Source: Aliivibrio fischeri ES114 (GTDB lineage: Bacteria > Pseudomonadota > Gammaproteobacteria > Enterobacterales > Vibrionaceae). Taken from it: a stretch of 32,000 nucleotides of DNA. Made by a program: the position numbers and the translations under genes. The notes beneath the pieces were generated by a model. That model ran no database searches, had not been told where the DNA came from, and saw only the letters and a list, made by a program, of their open reading frames with translations. The stretch lies in the NCBI RefSeq assembly GCF_000011805.1, contig NC_006840.2. One strand, given 5' to 3'. Positions 8,973 through 18,859 of this stretch are shown here, piece by piece. The stretch's first letter is position 1. Each line of letters starts with the position of its first letter.

Positions 8973-9998
8973 TTAATTCACATACATAGCACATTCATCA
9001 TCAATATCTTCTGGTGGGAAATAATTTTCTCTCACGTAGAATTTATTTAGTAACTTAATCACTGAATGTTTCTTTACTGGTTTTTCTTCCATCAAACCAT
9101 GTAGCTTTCTCGCTACATTTTGAATGCTTAACAAGTTCTCTAAAGGCAATATTGCTTCTAGCTCATTCTTTAAATCATGTGCATCTTCGTTATGGTTCGC
9201 TACCGCTAAATAAGCCCAAATATAAGCTACTGCATTATGAGATGAAGATACCTTTTGATTATATTGAGCCGCTCTGTATTGTGATTCAGGAGCTTTAAGT
9301 TCACCACCACGTTCTGCCCAATAGATAGCCTTATAAACGTTTTTCTGCGTCCCTATTCCATGGTAATAACAAGAGCTTACTGTTGTCATTGCCTTAGGAT
9401 CATCTTGATAAGCCGCTTTTAGCATCCAATAAAAACCTTCAGGATGTCCATCTTGTTGCTTTTGATACCATTGCGCTAAAAACAATTGAGATTCTAAATG
9501 GTTCTGTAATGCCAATTTAGTAATGGTTTTCGTTCCTAGCTCTATGTCTTTTTCACAACCAGTACCTGTGAGATACAATTTACCTAGAGTTAAAGAAGCA
9601 CTAATATCACCTTGGCTATCATCAAGTCTAGCCGCCCAGTAATCCGACTTTTCTGTTGCTTCAGGATCGTCGTAATTATCATCATATAAACGCACTAGAG
9701 CGTAAAAGGCTTGTTGGCTATTTTGTTCAGCCGCTTTTAAATACCATTTAATCGCACCATTTTGGTCAACCAATTCAAGGTCAGCCCCTAAAGCTAATTG
9801 GGCTGTTATATTTCCATTTTTTGCTCGTTGAATTTTGTCCTTTTTATCCGCTTCGTCATCAAACGGAACCACTGGAGACTTATGACTACTTTGTTGATTT
9901 TGTCGAATCGTTAACTTTTTTTTCTTTTCTGTAGTTTGAAAGTGTAGAACCATCAAAATAAGGCACACAACACTACAAAAAAATAAGAACCAATACAT
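8973..9998 (-). CDS. Membrane-anchored Sel1-repeat (TPR-like) protein
   Basis: It has an N-terminal hydrophobic helix (MYWFLFFCSVVCLILMVLHF) and then a Lys/Asp-rich linker. Several Sel1-type repeats follow (…AIKWYLKAAEQNSQQAFYAL…, …GFYWMLKAAYQDDPKAM…YYHGIGTQKNVYKAIYWAERGG…). Confidence 0.7.
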   Translation of the reverse strand: MYWFLFFCSVVCLILMVLHFQTTEKKKKLTIRQNQQSSHKSPVVPFDDEADKKDKIQRAKNGNITAQLALGADLELVDQNGAIKWYLKAAEQNSQQAFYALVRLYDDNYDDPEATEKSDYWAARLDDSQGDISASLTLGKLYLTGTGCEKDIELGTKTITKLALQNHLESQLFLAQWYQKQQDGHPEGFYWMLKAAYQDDPKAMTTVSSCYYHGIGTQKNVYKAIYWAERGGELKAPESQYRAAQYNQKVSSSHNAVAYIWAYLAVANHNEDAHDLKNELEAILPLENLLSIQNVARKLHGLMEEKPVKKHSVIKLLNKFYVRENYFPPEDIDDECAMYVN

Positions 9999-10236
9999 AT
10001 CTATATCATCGAAAAGGAATACGTTTTTTTGAGGCCTTATTCTAATGATTTTTATTCAGAATGAGAACGAATACATGATAGCAAAACAGTAATTAGGGCT
10101 ATTTTTTATAAAAAAATGCGACAAAAATAAATAAAAAAAACATATTCAGTTTTTATTCAATATTCCTAGCTTTGTGACTGGTTTTTTTCAATAAGTTAGC
10201 TAAGGTATAATTAAAATTATTATTTATTTGGTTAGT

Positions 10237-12591
10237 ATGAAAAAACTCTATCGTTACGTTTTATTTACTTTTTTGTTGATATTCTCTCAGCTCAGTTTTG
10301 CCAATTGGGATCTCACTGACAATCAACCAATAGAGATTAGCGCTCAAGCGACAAATATTGAGGCGGATATTCGTGCACTTCCTGAACAGCATTTCTTTTC
10401 AAATAACGATTATGCTCAAGTAAAACGATTACTTTCTACTACTATTTCGCAGCAAAAAGAGCATGCAACCGCTCTTAAAGAGGCATTAGCCACTTACAGA
10501 GAAGACAGTAGCAATCAAAACTGGATTGCAGTAGAAACTGTTCATCAATCATTGACTTCACTAAACCTAAGTAAAGAGCAACTGCTTAAGCTAACAAATA
10601 GCACAACACGAGAGCAATTAACCGGTTTTGGTCCTTATGGTGTTACCCAATTCTATTCTGAGTTATCCATTACCAAACTCAATATCGAATATTATCTACA
10701 TTACCAAATTCGTAGTTTTAAAAACCTACTAAAAGACTTAACCATTTCACCAGTTCCAATTATTAGTGTTATTTTTAAAGTGCTTTGTGTTTTCTTTATT
10801 TTTAGTTGGTGGATGAAAAATAGCTCTCGACTTATCAACGACTTTAAAACATCAAAATTAGAAAACGGCACCAAACCGAATTTCTTTATTAGAAGTATTT
10901 GGTATTTAACCCGTGCACATAAAGCAATAGCGTGGCTATTATTAATCACGGTCACATTACGAATCGTATCCACATTACCAAGCCTACAACACTTAATATT
11001 CTTAGAAATCTTCACTTGGTGGATTTTAGGTGGTTCTATTGCTGTTAGCTTTATTCTTGAATTTATTTATCGCAATAGTAAGCATAACAAAAAAGAAATT
11101 ATCGCTCTTCGTTTATCGACGGTTCGCCATTATGTTTGGGGGATAATTGTTGCAGGCGTAATTTTACAAATATCCTCTCGTACATTAGGACAAGGTACTA
11201 TCTATGCGTGGATAAACTCTCTAATGTATTTATTTTTTGTGCTCCTTACTATTCATACATTAAGAAAGTGGAAACCAACGGTTTTCGAAAGAATCGAACG
11301 TGTTGACCCTCTACCTCTATCTATTCAATGGGCGAAAAGAAATCAAAAGACTTTCCTTATTTCAATCGCTGCTACCGCTTGTGGCGCCGCTTGGTTATCT
11401 TGGCGAGCACTTCAACACTCGATTATTGCACTGTTATCGCAATACGCTGCATTCAGTCACGCATTGGCTTACTTATTCAGAATTGAAGTAGCTAAGCAAA
11501 CAGAAGTTGCACGTGAGCAATCCAATCTCGTTCGTGTTAAAGGTACGGCAGCATTTGATTACATTGCTCCTGGTTCTGAAGATTCAGAGCTTATTGAAGA
11601 TTATGCTAAAGATGAAATGTCTGCTCTTTCACGTTACTTATTAACCGAAAGTCCTGCTGTATGTGTGCTATCTGGTGAACGTGGTGTAGGTACAACTACC
11701 CTTCTTAATCGTATTTTAAATAAAGTAAAAAACGCGACACCGATTTATATTAATTGCCCATACGATGGCTATTCTGCTTTGCTTCCTGAACTGGCAAAAC
11801 AATTAGGACTAGATGAAGAATCAAGTGAGCGTGATATTCTTCAATACCTGCGTAACAGCGATACTTGTTATCTGCTTGCGTTTGATAGTGCGCAACGGTT
11901 AGTAAAACCCAAAGTGAATGGCTTAGCCGATTTAATGAAACTAACTAATTTATTGCGTCGAGCTCGTAAAAGTCATCGAGTGGTACTGGCTATTGAGAAA
12001 TCGTGCTGGCGCTTTATTGACCGTGCTCGTGGCGAAAGATTACTATTTGATTTAGTAACTTTTATGCCTAAATGGGATGAAAAGCAAATTGGTCAATTAT
12101 TAGAGTCGAGAATTACCCTATCTGAAGGTCAACCTACAATTTCATTTGATGGCTTAGTGCTACCAAGACAGTGGGATGAAGAAAACCTAACAGAGGAAGA
12201 ACGAGCGAGAAATGGATTCTATCGCATTCTTTGGGATTACTCTGATGGTAACCCTACAGTTGCACTTCGTTTCTTTAGATTATCACTTCACCGTGATAAA
12301 GACACTGATGCTATTTTGGTTCGTTTATTTAGAGCACCGCACTCTGATGACTTAGAAACCATGCCAAAACCTATGTTGGCAGTACTTAGATCAATTGTAC
12401 AGTTGGAGGTCGCCTCTCCTGCTGATGTATGTGATTGTAGCCGCTTAAGCATGGCTGAAGTTATCAGTACGCTTCGTTATTTCCAAAGTCGTGGCTACAT
12501 TGAATGGAGTGATGATAAAGCAAGGATCTCTGATCACTGGTTCCGCCACATTACTAATGTTCTTCATCGTCAACATTTATTGGTGAAATAA
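10237..12591 (+). CDS. Multi-domain membrane protein: signal peptide, periplasmic helical region, ~6 TM helices, cytoplasmic P-loop NTPase with atypical Walker A, C-terminal wHTH-like domain; function unknown
   Basis: I prefer ATG 10237 (MKKLYRYVLFTFLLIFSQLSFA) to the TTG at 10228. Hydrophobic helices span about aa 172-395. The P-loop is VCVLSGERGVGTTTLLNRIL and the Walker-B-like motif is CYLLAFDS. The C-terminus …LSMAEVISTLRYFQSRGYIEW… looks like a winged helix. Confidence 0.7.
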   Translation: MKKLYRYVLFTFLLIFSQLSFANWDLTDNQPIEISAQATNIEADIRALPEQHFFSNNDYAQVKRLLSTTISQQKEHATALKEALATYREDSSNQNWIAVETVHQSLTSLNLSKEQLLKLTNSTTREQLTGFGPYGVTQFYSELSITKLNIEYYLHYQIRSFKNLLKDLTISPVPIISVIFKVLCVFFIFSWWMKNSSRLINDFKTSKLENGTKPNFFIRSIWYLTRAHKAIAWLLLITVTLRIVSTLPSLQHLIFLEIFTWWILGGSIAVSFILEFIYRNSKHNKKEIIALRLSTVRHYVWGIIVAGVILQISSRTLGQGTIYAWINSLMYLFFVLLTIHTLRKWKPTVFERIERVDPLPLSIQWAKRNQKTFLISIAATACGAAWLSWRALQHSIIALLSQYAAFSHALAYLFRIEVAKQTEVAREQSNLVRVKGTAAFDYIAPGSEDSELIEDYAKDEMSALSRYLLTESPAVCVLSGERGVGTTTLLNRILNKVKNATPIYINCPYDGYSALLPELAKQLGLDEESSERDILQYLRNSDTCYLLAFDSAQRLVKPKVNGLADLMKLTNLLRRARKSHRVVLAIEKSCWRFIDRARGERLLFDLVTFMPKWDEKQIGQLLESRITLSEGQPTISFDGLVLPRQWDEENLTEEERARNGFYRILWDYSDGNPTVALRFFRLSLHRDKDTDAILVRLFRAPHSDDLETMPKPMLAVLRSIVQLEVASPADVCDCSRLSMAEVISTLRYFQSRGYIEWSDDKARISDHWFRHITNVLHRQHLLVK

Positions 12592-12592
12592 T

Positions 12593-13468
12593 ATGCTTCG
12601 TATTTTTATATTTTTTATAACGCTCGGATTTGGTTCGCTTGCATTTGCAGAAGAAGCACAATCTATCGACAACTTACAGCAGTTCGCTAGTCTAATTCGT
12701 TGGAGCGGTGTTGCTTTCTCATTTGTTATCGTATTTGTTGCTTGGTTACTGTTACGCTTTACCCAATCAATTGTAGATGGAATAAGTAGTCAATTTGCTC
12801 AACGTCGAATGTTGATGCAAAAACTGCAATCTTTCTTTCAATTCTTTATTTATATGTCAACGGGTATGGCTGTTTTCATGCTTAGCTTCCGTGTTGATGA
12901 GCGTGTGTTAGCACTAATCGGTGGTACGATTGCTGTCTCTGTTGGCTTTGCACTGAAAGACTTAACTGCATCATTCATCGCTGGATTAACAGTAATGATC
13001 GATCGCCCTTTCCAAGTCGGTGATCGCGTAACGTTTGAAGGTAATTATGGAGACATTATCGCTATTGGTTTACGTTCTGTTCGAATGCAAACTCTAAACG
13101 ATGACATTATTACTATCCCTAACAACAAATTCTTAAATGAAGTTGCTGTAAGTGGAAACTATGGTGCATTAGATATGCAAGTTGTTATTCCATTTTATAT
13201 TGGTATGGACCAAGACATTAATACCGCAAGAGATATTATTCAAGAAGCGGCATCTTCTAGTCGTTATATCCACTTACCTAAGCCTGTGGTTGTACTAGTG
13301 AAGCAAACCATTACAGATAATTATTTAGCCATTCAATTAACTTGTAAGGCTTACGTGGTAGATATTAAGTTTGAAAAGCTGTTCGAAACGGATATCACCT
13401 TACGTGTTATGCAAGAATTCAGAAAATCAGACATATTCCCGCCAGCCATTGCCGTTCAAAACAAATAG
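12593..13468 (+). CDS. Small-conductance mechanosensitive channel (MscS) family protein
   Basis: GGTIAVSVGFALKDLTASFIAGLTVMIDRPFQVGDRVTF…GDIIAIGLRSVRMQTLNDDIITIPNNKF is the MscS pore-helix and beta-domain signature. The ATG lies 1 nt after the stop of the upstream gene. Confidence 0.85.
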   Translation: MLRIFIFFITLGFGSLAFAEEAQSIDNLQQFASLIRWSGVAFSFVIVFVAWLLLRFTQSIVDGISSQFAQRRMLMQKLQSFFQFFIYMSTGMAVFMLSFRVDERVLALIGGTIAVSVGFALKDLTASFIAGLTVMIDRPFQVGDRVTFEGNYGDIIAIGLRSVRMQTLNDDIITIPNNKFLNEVAVSGNYGALDMQVVIPFYIGMDQDINTARDIIQEAASSSRYIHLPKPVVVLVKQTITDNYLAIQLTCKAYVVDIKFEKLFETDITLRVMQEFRKSDIFPPAIAVQNK

Positions 13469-13480
13469 TTATTCTATTAA

Positions 13481-13520
13481 AGGTAGCATGATAAACCATG
13501 CTACCTCTCTCTTTTCTCTC
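13481..13520 (+). terminator. Probable terminator after the MscS-like gene
   Basis: A 10-bp perfect stem AGGTAGCATG / CATGCTACCT with a 6-nt loop is followed by a C/T-rich tail containing TTTT. Confidence 0.45.
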
Positions 13521-13606: not shown

Positions 13607-14302
13607 ATGAAAATACTTTTAAAATCGTTAGTTATATCTGCTTCATTATGCTCACCTTTTGTTCTAGCTAACAGTGAAGCTCATAGTGATTATCTAAAAG
13701 GCACGGCTTATTTAAATCAAGATAACTATAAAGAAGCAATTACTTGGTTAACCAGTGCTGCTAATAATGGTTCTATTGAAGCACAAAACAAAATTGGAAC
13801 TATTTATGCGAAAGGGATCGGTACTGAAGCAAACACACAACTTGCTACCCAGTATTTTTTGAAAGCCGCAGCAAACCAAAGTTCTATGGCTTACTATAAC
13901 CTTGGTAAAATCTACGAATCAGAAGAAAAATATTCAACATCTATTGATTGGTATAACAAAGCAATTGAAGAAAATAACAGTAATGCAATGAATAACCTTG
14001 CTGACTTATATCTTCATGGCAAAGGGCTTGTTCAAAATACTCACCAAGCAGAATTACTTTATATTCAAGCTGCTGAATTAGGTAATGCTACAGCGATGCG
14101 TAATCTTGGTTTCTTATACACTAACAATAAAGAAGTTAAACAAGACATGAGCAAAGCGTATTTTTGGTTTAACCTTGCTGCTGAAAAAGACTTCCCAGAT
14201 GCAGATAAGTACCGTGACTATACAGGGAAAAAGCTAAGTAAAAGTAAACGCATTAAAGTTCAAAATGAAGCACTTGAATGGTTAGAACAGCATAATAGTT
14301 AA
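13607..14302 (+). CDS. Secreted Sel1-repeat protein
   Basis: It has a signal peptide (MKILLKSLVISASLCSPFVLANSEA) and 5-6 Sel1 repeats (…AITWLTSAANNGSIEAQNKIGTIYAKGIGTEAN…, …AELLYIQAAELGNATAMRNLGFLY…). Confidence 0.8.
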   Translation: MKILLKSLVISASLCSPFVLANSEAHSDYLKGTAYLNQDNYKEAITWLTSAANNGSIEAQNKIGTIYAKGIGTEANTQLATQYFLKAAANQSSMAYYNLGKIYESEEKYSTSIDWYNKAIEENNSNAMNNLADLYLHGKGLVQNTHQAELLYIQAAELGNATAMRNLGFLYTNNKEVKQDMSKAYFWFNLAAEKDFPDADKYRDYTGKKLSKSKRIKVQNEALEWLEQHNS

Positions 14303-14368: not shown

Positions 14369-15841
14369 TTATCGTTTAGCGAACTTATTTTCTATTACTT
14401 TAGGTAACCATGCGGCATAAACAAAAAGACCAAAAATAACAGTAAAATTACCGATAGTTCTGATTACCAACACATTCAGACTACTCGCTTCAACTTGTGT
14501 TAATAAATAATTTACGCCATACCTAGCTAACATTACACTCAATACAATTGTTATCAATGCAATTAATTTTACTTTTTCATCATTAATCACTTTAGGTTTA
14601 GAGCAAGCAATCGCTGCAACTACCCCCCAACATATTGCTGCTGCATATAAATAGTACACATACGCCATAATAAATGCGATGCCACTTATAACCACACTGA
14701 GCAATAACCAAAAATGTAAGCTTCCAATCACTTGATACAGCAAATCACCGTGTTTCTTCTGCATATTTGAGAAATGATAGAAAACCATTCCACCCAAACA
14801 CACACCGACAATGGCATCAGATACAAAATGAACACCGAGCCAAACTCGCGCTATTGATTGCCCTATTATTAGAATAATGAAAATGCATGCGTACCGTTTT
14901 AGTATTTTTTCTGGGAGTGATAATCTTTTTAAAATTAAATAAAAAGTACCGTAAATCACAACAGATAACATACTGTGCATACTTGGCATACCAAAACCAA
15001 CGGCTTCAGTTAATTGCAGTTGTGGTATATAAACAAAAGGACGTGGTAACCCTAAACCTTGCTTAGCCAACCCAGTTAAAACTATCGATAAAATAATACC
15101 AAACAATAAGGTTAAAGCAGAATTTCGACCAAAATAAACCAACGCAATAATAACGAAAAAGTAGAAGAAACCTTCTTTGCCAGTTTCGTTAATTAAGGTG
15201 AATATCGTTTTAACACTCAGTGTGACCACTTGCGGTAATTGATCTATTTTCGCACGAAGTGACGAGAGTAAATCCAACTCAAATTGATGAACTTTAGGTG
15301 CCTGATCAACAAGGTTAGTTACCCATAATATTTTATTCTCTGCGCTCGTTGTATCTAAAGACCATTGTTGTAATAACGGTAATTGTCCCGGGTAACGATA
15401 TTTATTTTCTGGGATCTTATACACTTCACTTAAATAAACCGCTTCAGTTTCTATACCGTAATGAGGAGCAAACCACGAAGGTATACGAAATAAGCCATTA
15501 ATGGTTTCTAGATCAAACGCAACAATATCGGATTCACTTACACAACGAAATATTGCTGCTGTTTCATCTTCGATAAGCAACTCTTTAGCTGTAACAACTA
15601 ATCCAGTTTCTTCCCATACTTCTCTTTCTGCGGCTTCTTGAGGTGTCTCTCCTCTCTCTTTATCAATGGTTCCACCTGGCAGTGATAATTTTCCAGTAAT
15701 TAATTCTTCAACTAAAACGACATGACTGCCATCACCAATAACGCATACTGCACCTTTTGGTTGAACAATATTGGCTGATGCACTGTGCATTGAAAATAGA
15801 GATAAAATAAATACAAATATGTTAAATAGTGGCATTTTCAT
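14369..15841 (-). CDS. Fusion protein: N-terminal signal/anchor, Nudix hydrolase domain, PAP2 (type-2 phosphatidic-acid-phosphatase family) membrane domain, extra C-terminal TM helices
   Basis: The Nudix box is GGTIDKERGETPQEAAEREVWEETGL (nt 15599-15676). The PAP2 motifs are KQGLGLPRP, PSMHS and ARVWLGVHFVSD. The N-terminus MKMPLFNIFVFILSLFSMHSASA looks Sec-cleavable. Confidence 0.75.
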   Translation of the reverse strand: MKMPLFNIFVFILSLFSMHSASANIVQPKGAVCVIGDGSHVVLVEELITGKLSLPGGTIDKERGETPQEAAEREVWEETGLVVTAKELLIEDETAAIFRCVSESDIVAFDLETINGLFRIPSWFAPHYGIETEAVYLSEVYKIPENKYRYPGQLPLLQQWSLDTTSAENKILWVTNLVDQAPKVHQFELDLLSSLRAKIDQLPQVVTLSVKTIFTLINETGKEGFFYFFVIIALVYFGRNSALTLLFGIILSIVLTGLAKQGLGLPRPFVYIPQLQLTEAVGFGMPSMHSMLSVVIYGTFYLILKRLSLPEKILKRYACIFIILIIGQSIARVWLGVHFVSDAIVGVCLGGMVFYHFSNMQKKHGDLLYQVIGSLHFWLLLSVVISGIAFIMAYVYYLYAAAICWGVVAAIACSKPKVINDEKVKLIALITIVLSVMLARYGVNYLLTQVEASSLNVLVIRTIGNFTVIFGLFVYAAWLPKVIENKFAKR

Positions 15842-18061: not shown

Positions 18062-18859
18062 TTGCCTATGCCACTGGCAGTTACACTACCCCTAATTCAT
18101 TTACTATTTGATTTCATTATGACTTTTTCATTTTCACCTAAAAACAGAATTTACGAGCTCATTGCGCTAGGTTTCTTTTCACTAATGATGGTTTGCACTC
18201 TATTGTTAACCCCAAAACCTGACCTATTTACTCCATTATCAAATAATGTAAATGAACTACTCAATTTGTTAAGTAACTCTGCAGGAAATCCATTTTTTCT
18301 TGTCACCACTTTTGTTCTTTGCCTTATTCCTGTAATTAAACGCCTATCAAGAAAAAAATTAGCGTCGCTATATGTGCAATTTGCTTTGTTGCTGGTGTTA
18401 AGTTTCGCTCTTAAAACAGGATTAAAATCAGTAACAGAAGTGCCTCGCCCATACAGCTATGCTCTCGCTGAAGTTGGACTAGTTGATAATGCTGCTAGCT
18501 TCTATCAATTAGAACCTGCGCTTAAAGATGAATTAATAGAACGTATCGCTTCAAAAGTGAGCCCTGCCAGAATCGAACAATGGCACGGCGAAACAAACTA
18601 TGCGTTTCCATCTGGCCACACAATCTTCGTTGCTATCTGTATTTTATTTTGGGGGGGATTCTTACTTAGACATAACCACTATATAACTGCAGGTTTATTA
18701 CTTACTTGGGGGGTTGGTGTAGGATTCAGTCGTATTTGGCTTGGAATGCATTGGCCGACAGATTTAATGGGCTCAACAATTTTAGCTTCATTATTAATCT
18801 TTTGTGTACCAAAAATTAATTTTGAAAAGAATCATCAAGCAAATAATGCCGTAAGCTAA
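18062..18859 (+). CDS. pgpB: PAP2-family phosphatase, phosphatidylglycerophosphatase B-like
   Basis: The PAP2 motifs are LKSVTEVPRP, FPSGHT and SRIWLGMHWPTD. The region …HGETNYAFPSGHTIFVA… resembles E. coli PgpB. The start is uncertain (TTG 18062, ATG 18068 or ATG 18119). Confidence 0.7.
   Translation: MPMPLAVTLPLIHLLFDFIMTFSFSPKNRIYELIALGFFSLMMVCTLLLTPKPDLFTPLSNNVNELLNLLSNSAGNPFFLVTTFVLCLIPVIKRLSRKKLASLYVQFALLLVLSFALKTGLKSVTEVPRPYSYALAEVGLVDNAASFYQLEPALKDELIERIASKVSPARIEQWHGETNYAFPSGHTIFVAICILFWGGFLLRHNHYITAGLLLTWGVGVGFSRIWLGMHWPTDLMGSTILASLLIFCVPKINFEKNHQANNAVS

Follow-up and report, generated by a model that had tools for sequence, protein, structure and literature searches.

Within a 32,000-nucleotide stretch of the Aliivibrio fischeri ES114 genome (contig NC_006840.2; hereafter the window, meaning this whole stretch), two adjacent genes on the plus strand encode an integral membrane protein with a Cdc6/Orc1-like AAA+ module and a small MscS-family channel protein, and we find that these two genes form an obligate pair across distant bacterial lineages. 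The first (10237..12591, +) specifies 784 amino acids (aa) from its ATG and matches AAW86033.1 exactly, with an alternative in-frame TTG in the open reading frame (ORF) list at 10228; the second (12593..13468, +) specifies a 291-aa putative pore subunit with 100% identity and coverage to the cluster representative AAW86034.1. By accession arithmetic from VF_1655 (AAW86150.1), their ES114 locus tags should be approximately VF_1538 and VF_1539. The junction (12589..12595, +) reads AAA TAA t ATG—the stop codon of gene 1 at 12589–12591, a single base, and the start codon of gene 2 at 12593—and a Shine-Dalgarno-like GGTGA for gene 2 sits inside the final codons of gene 1. The operon is closed by an intrinsic-terminator-like hairpin (13481..13516, +), made up of a stem-loop at 13481–13506 with a 10-bp stem and a 6-nt loop, followed by a T-rich tail. 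A first-pass annotation, made from the sequence alone, had pointed to both the one-nucleotide coupling and the terminator-like hairpin, and our reading of the junction and of the stem bears it out on each. Upstream, an AT-rich intergenic region between a divergent Sel1 gene and the pair (9999..10236, +) presumably contains the operon promoter; a consensus scan of its plus strand found no convincing sigma-70 site. Because this upstream neighbor is divergent, we treat the pair as a two-gene operon. A 104-aa ORF antisense to gene 1 (10701–11015, −) is without support.

We examined the linkage of the two genes from both directions. A HMMER search with the large protein recovered 344 cluster representatives at E <= 1e-30, most of them 1,050–1,300 aa long and matching the query over aa ~90–783; these long forms therefore carry about 400 extra periplasmic residues. 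The periplasmic domain is ~400 aa longer in Myxococcota and Novosphingobium, and the long forms have ~550 aa of periplasmic helices. In a scan of species-representative genomes, we took the best 80 of 165 relatives together with two further loci (Psychromonas and Vibrio), for 82 loci. Among the best 80, the members in Myxococcota (Polyangiales, Nannocystales, Bradymonadales, among others) are long and those in Aliivibrio and Photobacterium short. Starting from the AAA+ gene, an MscS-like ORF was found immediately downstream and on the same strand in 81/82 loci, and the lone exception falls at a contig end. The downstream partners in Myxococcota score 267–385 bits against the window MscS protein, compared with 22–61 bits for other MscS paralogues in the same loci. 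The reciprocal test, starting from the MscS subfamily in metagenomes (best 80 loci, 47–90% identity, of which 7 were too short to judge), found, in 73/73 evaluable loci, that the AAA+ gene ends immediately before the MscS gene. Two genes with a stop codon between them are present in all 155 loci, and the junction gaps in 81 loci, which are somewhat biased in that the start codon nearest to the stop was taken, were −4 (an ATGA overlap) in 21, +1 in 20, −1 in 5, and 0 in 4 (50/81), and never more than 39 nt. Tight junctions and adjacency that recur in this way exceed what chance would give. All-against-all clustering of neighboring ORFs recovered no third conserved gene, and the flanks differ between loci; apparent clusters of conserved neighbors proved to be antisense ORFs in high-GC DNA. 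The pairing of the AAA+ gene and the MscS gene is obligate, and this neighborhood survey strongly favors the dedicated two-gene module that the first-pass annotation had offered as a candidate.

Partner distances also correlate, with r of 0.85 within Myxococcota and 0.98 within Gammaproteobacteria, values reached in 0/500 permutations; the mirrored distances show co-inheritance without partner swapping. The phyletic pattern is patchy, comprising Myxococcota, some marine Gammaproteobacteria, and some Alphaproteobacteria. The gene for the large protein is present in many named Vibrio species at 55–60% identity and looks vertically inherited there. A tblastn search against plasmids placed the pair on two Novosphingobium megaplasmids (N. 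pentaromativorans pLA3 and a replicon of Novosphingobium sp. PP1Y; loci L165 and H2) and on one plasmid of Caulobacter sp. NIBR2454 (L166), this last a 104-kb plasmid with type IV secretion system (T4SS) genes. The MscS partners of these plasmid copies are 55% and 49% identical to the window protein. Since it occurs on these alphaproteobacterial plasmids, the module can move horizontally; it was not found in 2.9 M viral contigs or in 50,697 phage records. A Myxococcota-like member (L041; 37% identity to the query) lies on a 2,769-bp contig binned as Gaiellaceae, Actinomycetota, and probably reflects mis-binning and not a fourth phylum. In some loci a second MscS-family gene directly follows the partner (L013, 8709–10552; L166, 7037–8880; and L036, L038, L043, L060–L062, and L065); it is a near-duplicate in a Bradymonadaceae metagenome-assembled genome (343 and 326 bits), whereas the Caulobacter plasmid and several Polyangiaceae have a distant paralogue there (22% identity; 24–29 bits).

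The large protein has the anatomy that had been read from its sequence at the outset—signal peptide, helical periplasmic region, transmembrane (TM) bundle, P-loop domain, and winged helix—with one correction: the bundle stands, and the earlier count of about six TM helices (aa ~172–395) gives way to seven by hydropathy and the positive-inside rule. A presumably cleaved signal peptide (10237..10311, +; aa 1–25, MKK…SQLSFA before N), hydrophobic over aa 4–22, precedes an all-helical periplasmic domain (10312..10743, +; aa 26–169) with a juxtamembrane motif, LTGFGPxGVxQ, that is near-invariant in the family alignment (G132, G135, and E142). The seven-TM bundle (10744..11478, +; aa 170–414) consists of TM1 followed by three helical hairpins, with helices at 170–188, 230–248, 253–271, 300–318, 321–339, 374–392, and 396–414. 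Loop charge assigns the K/R-rich loops at 189–229, 272–299, and 340–373 to the cytoplasmic side, and an odd number of helices is required for the AAA+ module to be cytoplasmic as well. Neither Pfam nor NCBIfam has a family that covers aa 1–430, and searches of PDB sequences with the large protein and with its N-terminal profile returned only noise.

The cytoplasmic part begins with an α/β domain of the initiator AAA+ clade (11530..12186, +; aa 432–650), identified by a Pfam AAA_22 match at aa 473–590 (40.6 bits vs. a cutoff of 27, E 3.9e-10), alongside weaker P-loop families, and by structural comparison. It continues through a lid (aa 651–700) into a C-terminal winged-helix domain (WHD; aa 701–784) ending in the conserved tail RQHLLVK (lid and WHD together, 12187..12588, +). 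An AlphaFold2 (AF2) model built on a 30-sequence alignment reached a mean predicted local distance difference test (pLDDT) score of 84.8, with values below 50 for aa 1–31, and Foldseek against the PDB recognized in aa ~430–784 all three parts of a Cdc6/Orc1-like module (AAA+, lid, and winged helix), with the archaeal and eukaryotic Cdc6/Orc1 structures 1fnn (4.8e-9), 7jgr_G, 2qby_A, and 2v1u_A as top matches. These alignments run to ~400 columns over targets of 366–382 residues, and the match therefore spans the entire AAA+ domain, lid, and winged helix. Sequence models for the same clade remain below threshold: NCBIfam TIGR02928 (orc1/cdc6) scored 23.2 bits against a cutoff of 181.3 for the large protein, and Pfam ORC-CDC6-like was likewise sub-threshold among 30 family members. 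Pfam also gave weak, sub-threshold matches to the STAND-type NTPase models nSTAND3, nSTAND5, and NACHT, and weak TrmB and MarR matches to the winged helix in several of the 30 members. The net charge of the WHD is −1 in the window protein and averages −0.8 over 30 members, with approximately 0 for the recognition helix and wing; three arginines in the domain, R718, R747, and R770, are conserved. The most conserved motif family-wide lies in the AAA+ lid, W-D-Y-S-D-G-N-P (12217–12240, +; aa 661–668 region), where G671 and N672 (12247–12252) are invariant in the family alignment.

The fold of this module is kept in the window protein, and its ATP site appears to be dead, both there and throughout the gammaproteobacterial clade. 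The Walker A motif is degenerate (11674..11700, +; G480-E-R-G-V-G-T486-T-T), with threonine at the lysine position, and the Walker B motif (11869..11889, +) reads YLLAF-D550-S551, where long forms have hhhhDD. The Walker A lysine is present in 0/120 of the closest database proteins (from Aliivibrio, Photobacterium, Vibrio, Psychromonas, and Shewanella); the position is instead occupied by T in 84, A in 19, S in 11, V in 5, and I in 1. Around it, the GERGxGxTT scaffold does not vary among the 112 motifs recovered. All 120 gammaproteobacterial homologues also lack the second acidic residue of Walker B, and N follows the Walker B aspartate in 116/120. Long forms carry canonical GERGxGK[ST] and DD motifs, with the Walker A lysine in 95/110 representatives and the Walker B DD in 80/110, and two alphaproteobacterial plasmid copies retain the lysine (GERGLGKSS and GERGAGKTS). 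With the lysine of Walker A and the second acidic residue of Walker B both missing, nucleotide control is unlikely in the window; the idea of a nucleotide-regulated channel, which the first-pass annotation had raised as one of two hypotheses, is thus not supported for this protein and can apply at best to the long forms. Cdc6/Orc1 proteins have a sensor-2 arginine motif in the lid, at the place where this family has G-N-P, and the alignment, read by eye, lacks the lid arginine even in long forms with intact Walker motifs. The long forms may therefore also be slow or non-canonical ATPases.

The 291-aa protein is, by its domain matches and alignment, a bona fide MscS-family member, and the intact pore-helix and β-domain signature previously ascribed to it is confirmed by Pfam domains above cutoff and by the features of its third TM helix. 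A signal-peptide-like hydrophobic segment (12593..12649, +; aa 1–19, ending in SLAFA before EE) is followed by a conserved periplasmic motif, IRWSGV, in which R36 and G39 are invariant. Hydropathy predicts TM segments at 39–57, 81–99, and 105–131, with the N-terminus outside and the C-terminus inside. Alignment with E. coli MscS identifies the pore helix as TM3 (12905..12985, +; aa 105–131, GGTIAVSVGFALKD), after which comes an RPF motif (…DRPFQVGD). Where E. coli MscS has L105, L109, and G113, this protein has V, F, and D, the same pattern as in the MscK core. TM3 has a small-residue packing face, and its residues G110, G111, A114, G118, F119, and A120 are invariant in the subfamily. The cytoplasmic β-domain and the α/β C-terminal domain follow (12959..13435, +; aa 123–183 and 197–281), matching MS_channel_2nd (PF00924; aa 123–183, 60.1 bits vs. 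20.2, 2.3e-16) and MS_channel_3rd (PF21082; aa 197–281, 23.4 bits vs. 21, 8e-5). Its best solved relatives are MscK (7uw5, 6.9e-15) and Thermoanaerobacter tengcongensis MscS. Across phyla, this protein is the better conserved of the two, with identity to the window proteins in Myxococcota averaging ~53% for the pore partner versus ~30% for the AAA+ partner; it is under unusually strong purifying, rather than diversifying, selection. That conservation, together with the periplasmic motifs on both proteins, would fit an extensive heteromeric interface.

The explanation we favor, with a probability of roughly 0.5, is that the products of the two genes assemble into a single obligate complex in the membrane, a channel of the MscS type with two kinds of polypeptide. 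The anatomy, the strict linkage in both directions, the coupling, and the loss of motifs are shown by the sequences; the physical association, the stoichiometry, and any effect on gating we infer. The 291-aa protein would form an MscS-like heptameric pore with a hydrophobic V/F constriction and a predicted cytoplasmic cage, and the 784-aa protein would not line the pore. Translational coupling would keep its amount close to that of the pore protein, and it would surround the pore with an outer bundle of 7 TM helices and add a helical domain in the periplasm. The large subunit would in this way supply in trans what the N-terminal extension gives MscK and MscM in cis, with its Cdc6/Orc1-like AAA+ and winged-helix module sitting under the membrane beside the cytoplasmic cage. 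In the ancestral-looking long forms of Myxococcota and Alphaproteobacteria, the intact AAA+ site would probably switch gating or assembly according to nucleotide; in Vibrionaceae, Shewanella, Psychromonas, and Oleiphilus, where catalytic residues were lost and the fold kept, the module may serve as a nucleotide-independent scaffold or regulatory domain. More tentatively, the pair may represent a new class of heteromeric channel, in which a heptameric MscS pore is permanently wrapped by seven 7-TM subunits and an AAA+/winged-helix ring beneath the cage couples nucleotide state (in Myxococcota and Alphaproteobacteria) or a cytoplasmic ligand or partner (in vibrios) to gating. A bolder variant of the wrapped pore would have membrane tension linked to DNA through the winged helix.

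How far the resemblance to MscK extends bears on this proposal. The pore gene aligns to MscK 836–1086, through the end of that protein, with an HH probability of 98.5%. For the N-terminal half of the large protein, a separate AF2 model of aa 30–432 (pLDDT 85) retrieved E. coli MscK, in its open and closed forms, at ranks 1 and 2 among 350,542 chains in Foldseek, and hhalign with a 30-sequence profile aligned aa 69–322 collinearly with MscK 374–663 (score 43.1, P 8.5e-4). Against the N-terminal template alone the score was 41.1, compared with 18.1 for the reversed template and with 21.3 ± 3.1 (max 27.3) and 22.7 ± 3.7 (max 31.9) for 80 block-shuffled templates, which puts the 30-sequence profile 5–6 standard deviations above its shuffled and reversed controls. 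A 139-sequence profile matched its TM1–loop–TM2 region to MscK 503–601 with a score of 36.3 versus 21.4 ± 3.3 (max 28.7), corresponding to z ~4.5 and a probability of 8.3%. The MscK/MscM template profile in these comparisons is thin, at 9 sequences, the MscKs retrieved for it being only enterobacterial ones of at least 80% identity. Because the pore gene and the N-terminal half align collinearly, the gene order reproduces the domain order of MscK. The likeness to MscK/KefA-type channels noted at first pass therefore holds for architecture and is suggestive only for sequence and fold; we regard homology of the N-terminal half to the MscK extension as plausible but unproven, and lean slightly toward it. 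The functional analogy with MscK is independent of that homology. A simple gene split of MscK was considered and rejected, as the parity of TM helices is wrong and the AAA+ module is extra.

Several observations weigh against the two-subunit channel or against its kinship with MscK. The Foldseek matches of the N-terminal model to MscK are not significant (E 0.18 and 0.48; template-modeling scores 0.22–0.26), and the HH probability of the extension match is only 8–24% (23.8% for the 30-sequence profile). A 15-sequence profile scored 22.7 against MscK, inside the shuffled null, and hhalign against the single E. coli MscK sequence gave a probability of 1.4%. Neither MscS_TM (PF12794) nor MscS_porin (PF12795), both of which true MscK proteins carry, is among the 25 families listed for 30 members at E <= 10, and the N-terminal-half hidden Markov model returned only coiled-coil noise from PDB sequences. 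With 7 TM helices in the extension against 8 in that of MscK, the pair is not a simple split. No fused, single-polypeptide version occurs among the top 150 representatives, and the mirror-tree correlation and the synteny are equally expected for any stable operon. Finally, we know of no AAA+ module of the initiator clade that regulates a channel, and Cdc6/Orc1 proteins usually bind DNA.

The genomic setting in Aliivibrio provides further context. Besides the module, the window contains genes for an amino-acid ABC transporter, YccA, two Sel1 proteins, a NUDIX-PAP2 fusion, a GNAT protein, FadL, a LysR regulator, and DcuA/B, and the ccm and nrf genes. The immediate flanks of the module are conserved in seven other Aliivibrio loci: the upstream Sel1-repeat gene (8973–9998, −) recurs in 7/7 loci of the window paralogue and the downstream one (13607–14302, +) in 6/7. 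As both are absent from the loci of a second paralogue and from other genera, the Sel1 genes are not part of the module. That second paralogous pair, VF_1655/VF_1656 in ES114, has 75% (AAA+) and 88% (MscS) identity to the pair in the window and also lacks the Walker A lysine; in A. fischeri emors.2.1, two modules (L064 and L068) lie ~76 kb apart on the same contig. The module in Aliivibrio is chromosomal and vertically inherited, and is not in a defense island. Elsewhere in the window, a 490-aa ORF (14369–15841, −) joins an N-terminal NUDIX hydrolase to a PAP2 membrane phosphatase, an unusual fusion, with a stand-alone PAP2 gene (18062–18859, +) ~2 kb away. At the window edge, an ORF with DUF2786 and DUF7168 (834–1523, +) stands beside a GntR regulator and a sirohaem synthase-like gene, with no obvious link to the module.

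Other explanations account for parts of these data. A complete Cdc6/Orc1-type module whose closest solved relatives are DNA-bound archaeal Orc1/Cdc6 structures (2qby and 2v1u), weak TrmB/MarR matches in several members, and the conserved WHD arginines R718, R747, and R770 might together indicate signaling from membrane to DNA, with the MscS-like protein, or else the periplasmic and 7-TM part, as the sensor of envelope state or tension and the AAA+-winged-helix part as the output, binding chromosomal DNA as a membrane-tethered regulator or tether. We think this rather unlikely, given that the WHD is not basic, that the fold of the module was kept after a whole clade lost its ATP site, and that no conserved target gene or DNA repeat lies beside the pair; it would also leave the greater conservation of the pore partner unexplained. 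The large protein might instead be a biogenesis or quality-control factor for the MscS paralogue, acting in its insertion, oligomerization, or localization, or the two might work in the same pathway without contact. Strict operon linkage fits such a role equally well, and other AAA_22 proteins at the membrane, GspA/ExeA among them, help to assemble complexes of the envelope. An assembly motor, however, would be expected to need ATP hydrolysis, for which the site is dead in ~120 well-conserved homologues; translational coupling suggests comparable amounts of both proteins, and canonical MscS channels assemble unaided. On these grounds an assembly role seems to us unlikely.

Very unlikely, in our estimation, is the second of the initial hypotheses, an anti-phage or abortive-infection pair in which the NTPase senses infection and opens the MscS-like pore, depolarizing the cell. 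Coupling of a sensor NTPase to a membrane effector is a common logic among defense systems, and the sub-threshold STAND-type matches (nSTAND3, nSTAND5, and NACHT), the copy on a Caulobacter plasmid that has T4SS genes, and the presence of two copies in Aliivibrio could be read in its favor. Yet PADLOC returned no match; the neighbors are housekeeping genes (ABC transporter, YccA, FadL, nrf, and ccm) with flanks conserved across the genus Aliivibrio; the apparently vertical presence in many named Vibrio species at 55–60% identity and the absence from the viral contigs and phage records point the same way; the supposed sensor has lost its NTPase site clade-wide in Gammaproteobacteria; and the pore is under strong purifying, not diversifying, selection. 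Context, distribution, and the lack of any PADLOC or phage signal lead us to reject both a defense system and a phage gene as identities for the module.

If the two proteins are indeed subunits of one channel, the consequences would reach both families. Bacterial MscS-family channels are treated as self-sufficient homo-heptamers, and their diversity is attributed to domains fused in cis, as in MscK, MscM, YbiO, YnaI, and the bCNG channels; a pore that, in Myxococcota, Alphaproteobacteria, and Gammaproteobacteria alike, is never encoded without a particular second membrane protein would add a trans-acting subunit to the MscS family, and would reveal an unexpected membrane use of the Cdc6/Orc1 AAA+ fold. 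Were the wrapped-pore arrangement also correct, the replication-initiator AAA+ clade would gain its first integral-membrane member, and the MscS family its first channel that depends on a second gene product. A whole clade has lost the ATP site, at a cleanly datable point, and kept the rest of the fold, which amounts to a natural experiment on the role of the AAA+ module. These hypotheses are directly testable because Vibrio fischeri ES114 is genetically tractable and has two paralogous copies.

We compared the pair with the systems that it most resembles. The initial statement that it matches no named system holds in the sources searched: PADLOC gave no match to a known defense system for the window module, no curated Pfam or NCBIfam family beyond the generic AAA_22 covers the large protein, no paper on the pair was found in the searchable literature, and the text of a proteomics paper on A. 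fischeri and salinity does not mention either protein. MscK (KefA) and MscM (YjeP) (PDB 7uw5/7ux1 and 11sm) have the same order of signal peptide, helical periplasmic domain, multi-TM bundle, MscS pore, β-domain, and α/β domain, and where E. coli MscS has L105, L109, and G113, MscK has the same V/F/acidic pattern as the pore subunit. Those channels, however, are single polypeptides, whereas the pair is two; the MscK extension has 8 TM helices in the 7uw5 structure, compared with 7 here; and neither has the ~350-aa Cdc6/Orc1-like AAA+ and winged-helix module that follows the bundle in the large protein.

The large protein is folded, in its cytoplasmic part, like archaeal and eukaryotic Cdc6/Orc1 proteins (1fnn, 2qby, and 2v1u), with an AAA+ domain, a lid, and a winged helix. 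It differs from them in being anchored in the membrane behind 7 TM helices, in its non-basic WHD, and, in the gammaproteobacterial clade, in lacking the lysine of Walker A and the second acidic residue of Walker B. GspA/ExeA and MshM likewise combine an AAA_22 P-loop domain with inner-membrane association. In ExeA, the ATPase is N-terminal and cytoplasmic and is followed by a single TM helix and a domain that binds peptidoglycan in the periplasm; the large protein has the reverse domain order and 7 TM helices, and it is paired with an MscS channel, not with GspB or a secretin. Canonical MscS channels (E. coli YggB, and those of T. tengcongensis and H. pylori) resemble the pore subunit in size, in their three TM helices with the N-terminus outside, in the Gly/Ala face of TM3, and in the β and α/β domains. 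The pore subunit is distinguished from them by a cleavable-looking signal peptide and the IRWSGV motif, by a cross-phylum identity (~53%) far above that of unlinked MscS paralogues, and by never occurring without the upstream AAA+ gene in the evaluable metagenome loci (73/73). In sum, we regard the pair as a channel of the MscS family whose obligate partner had not been described before.

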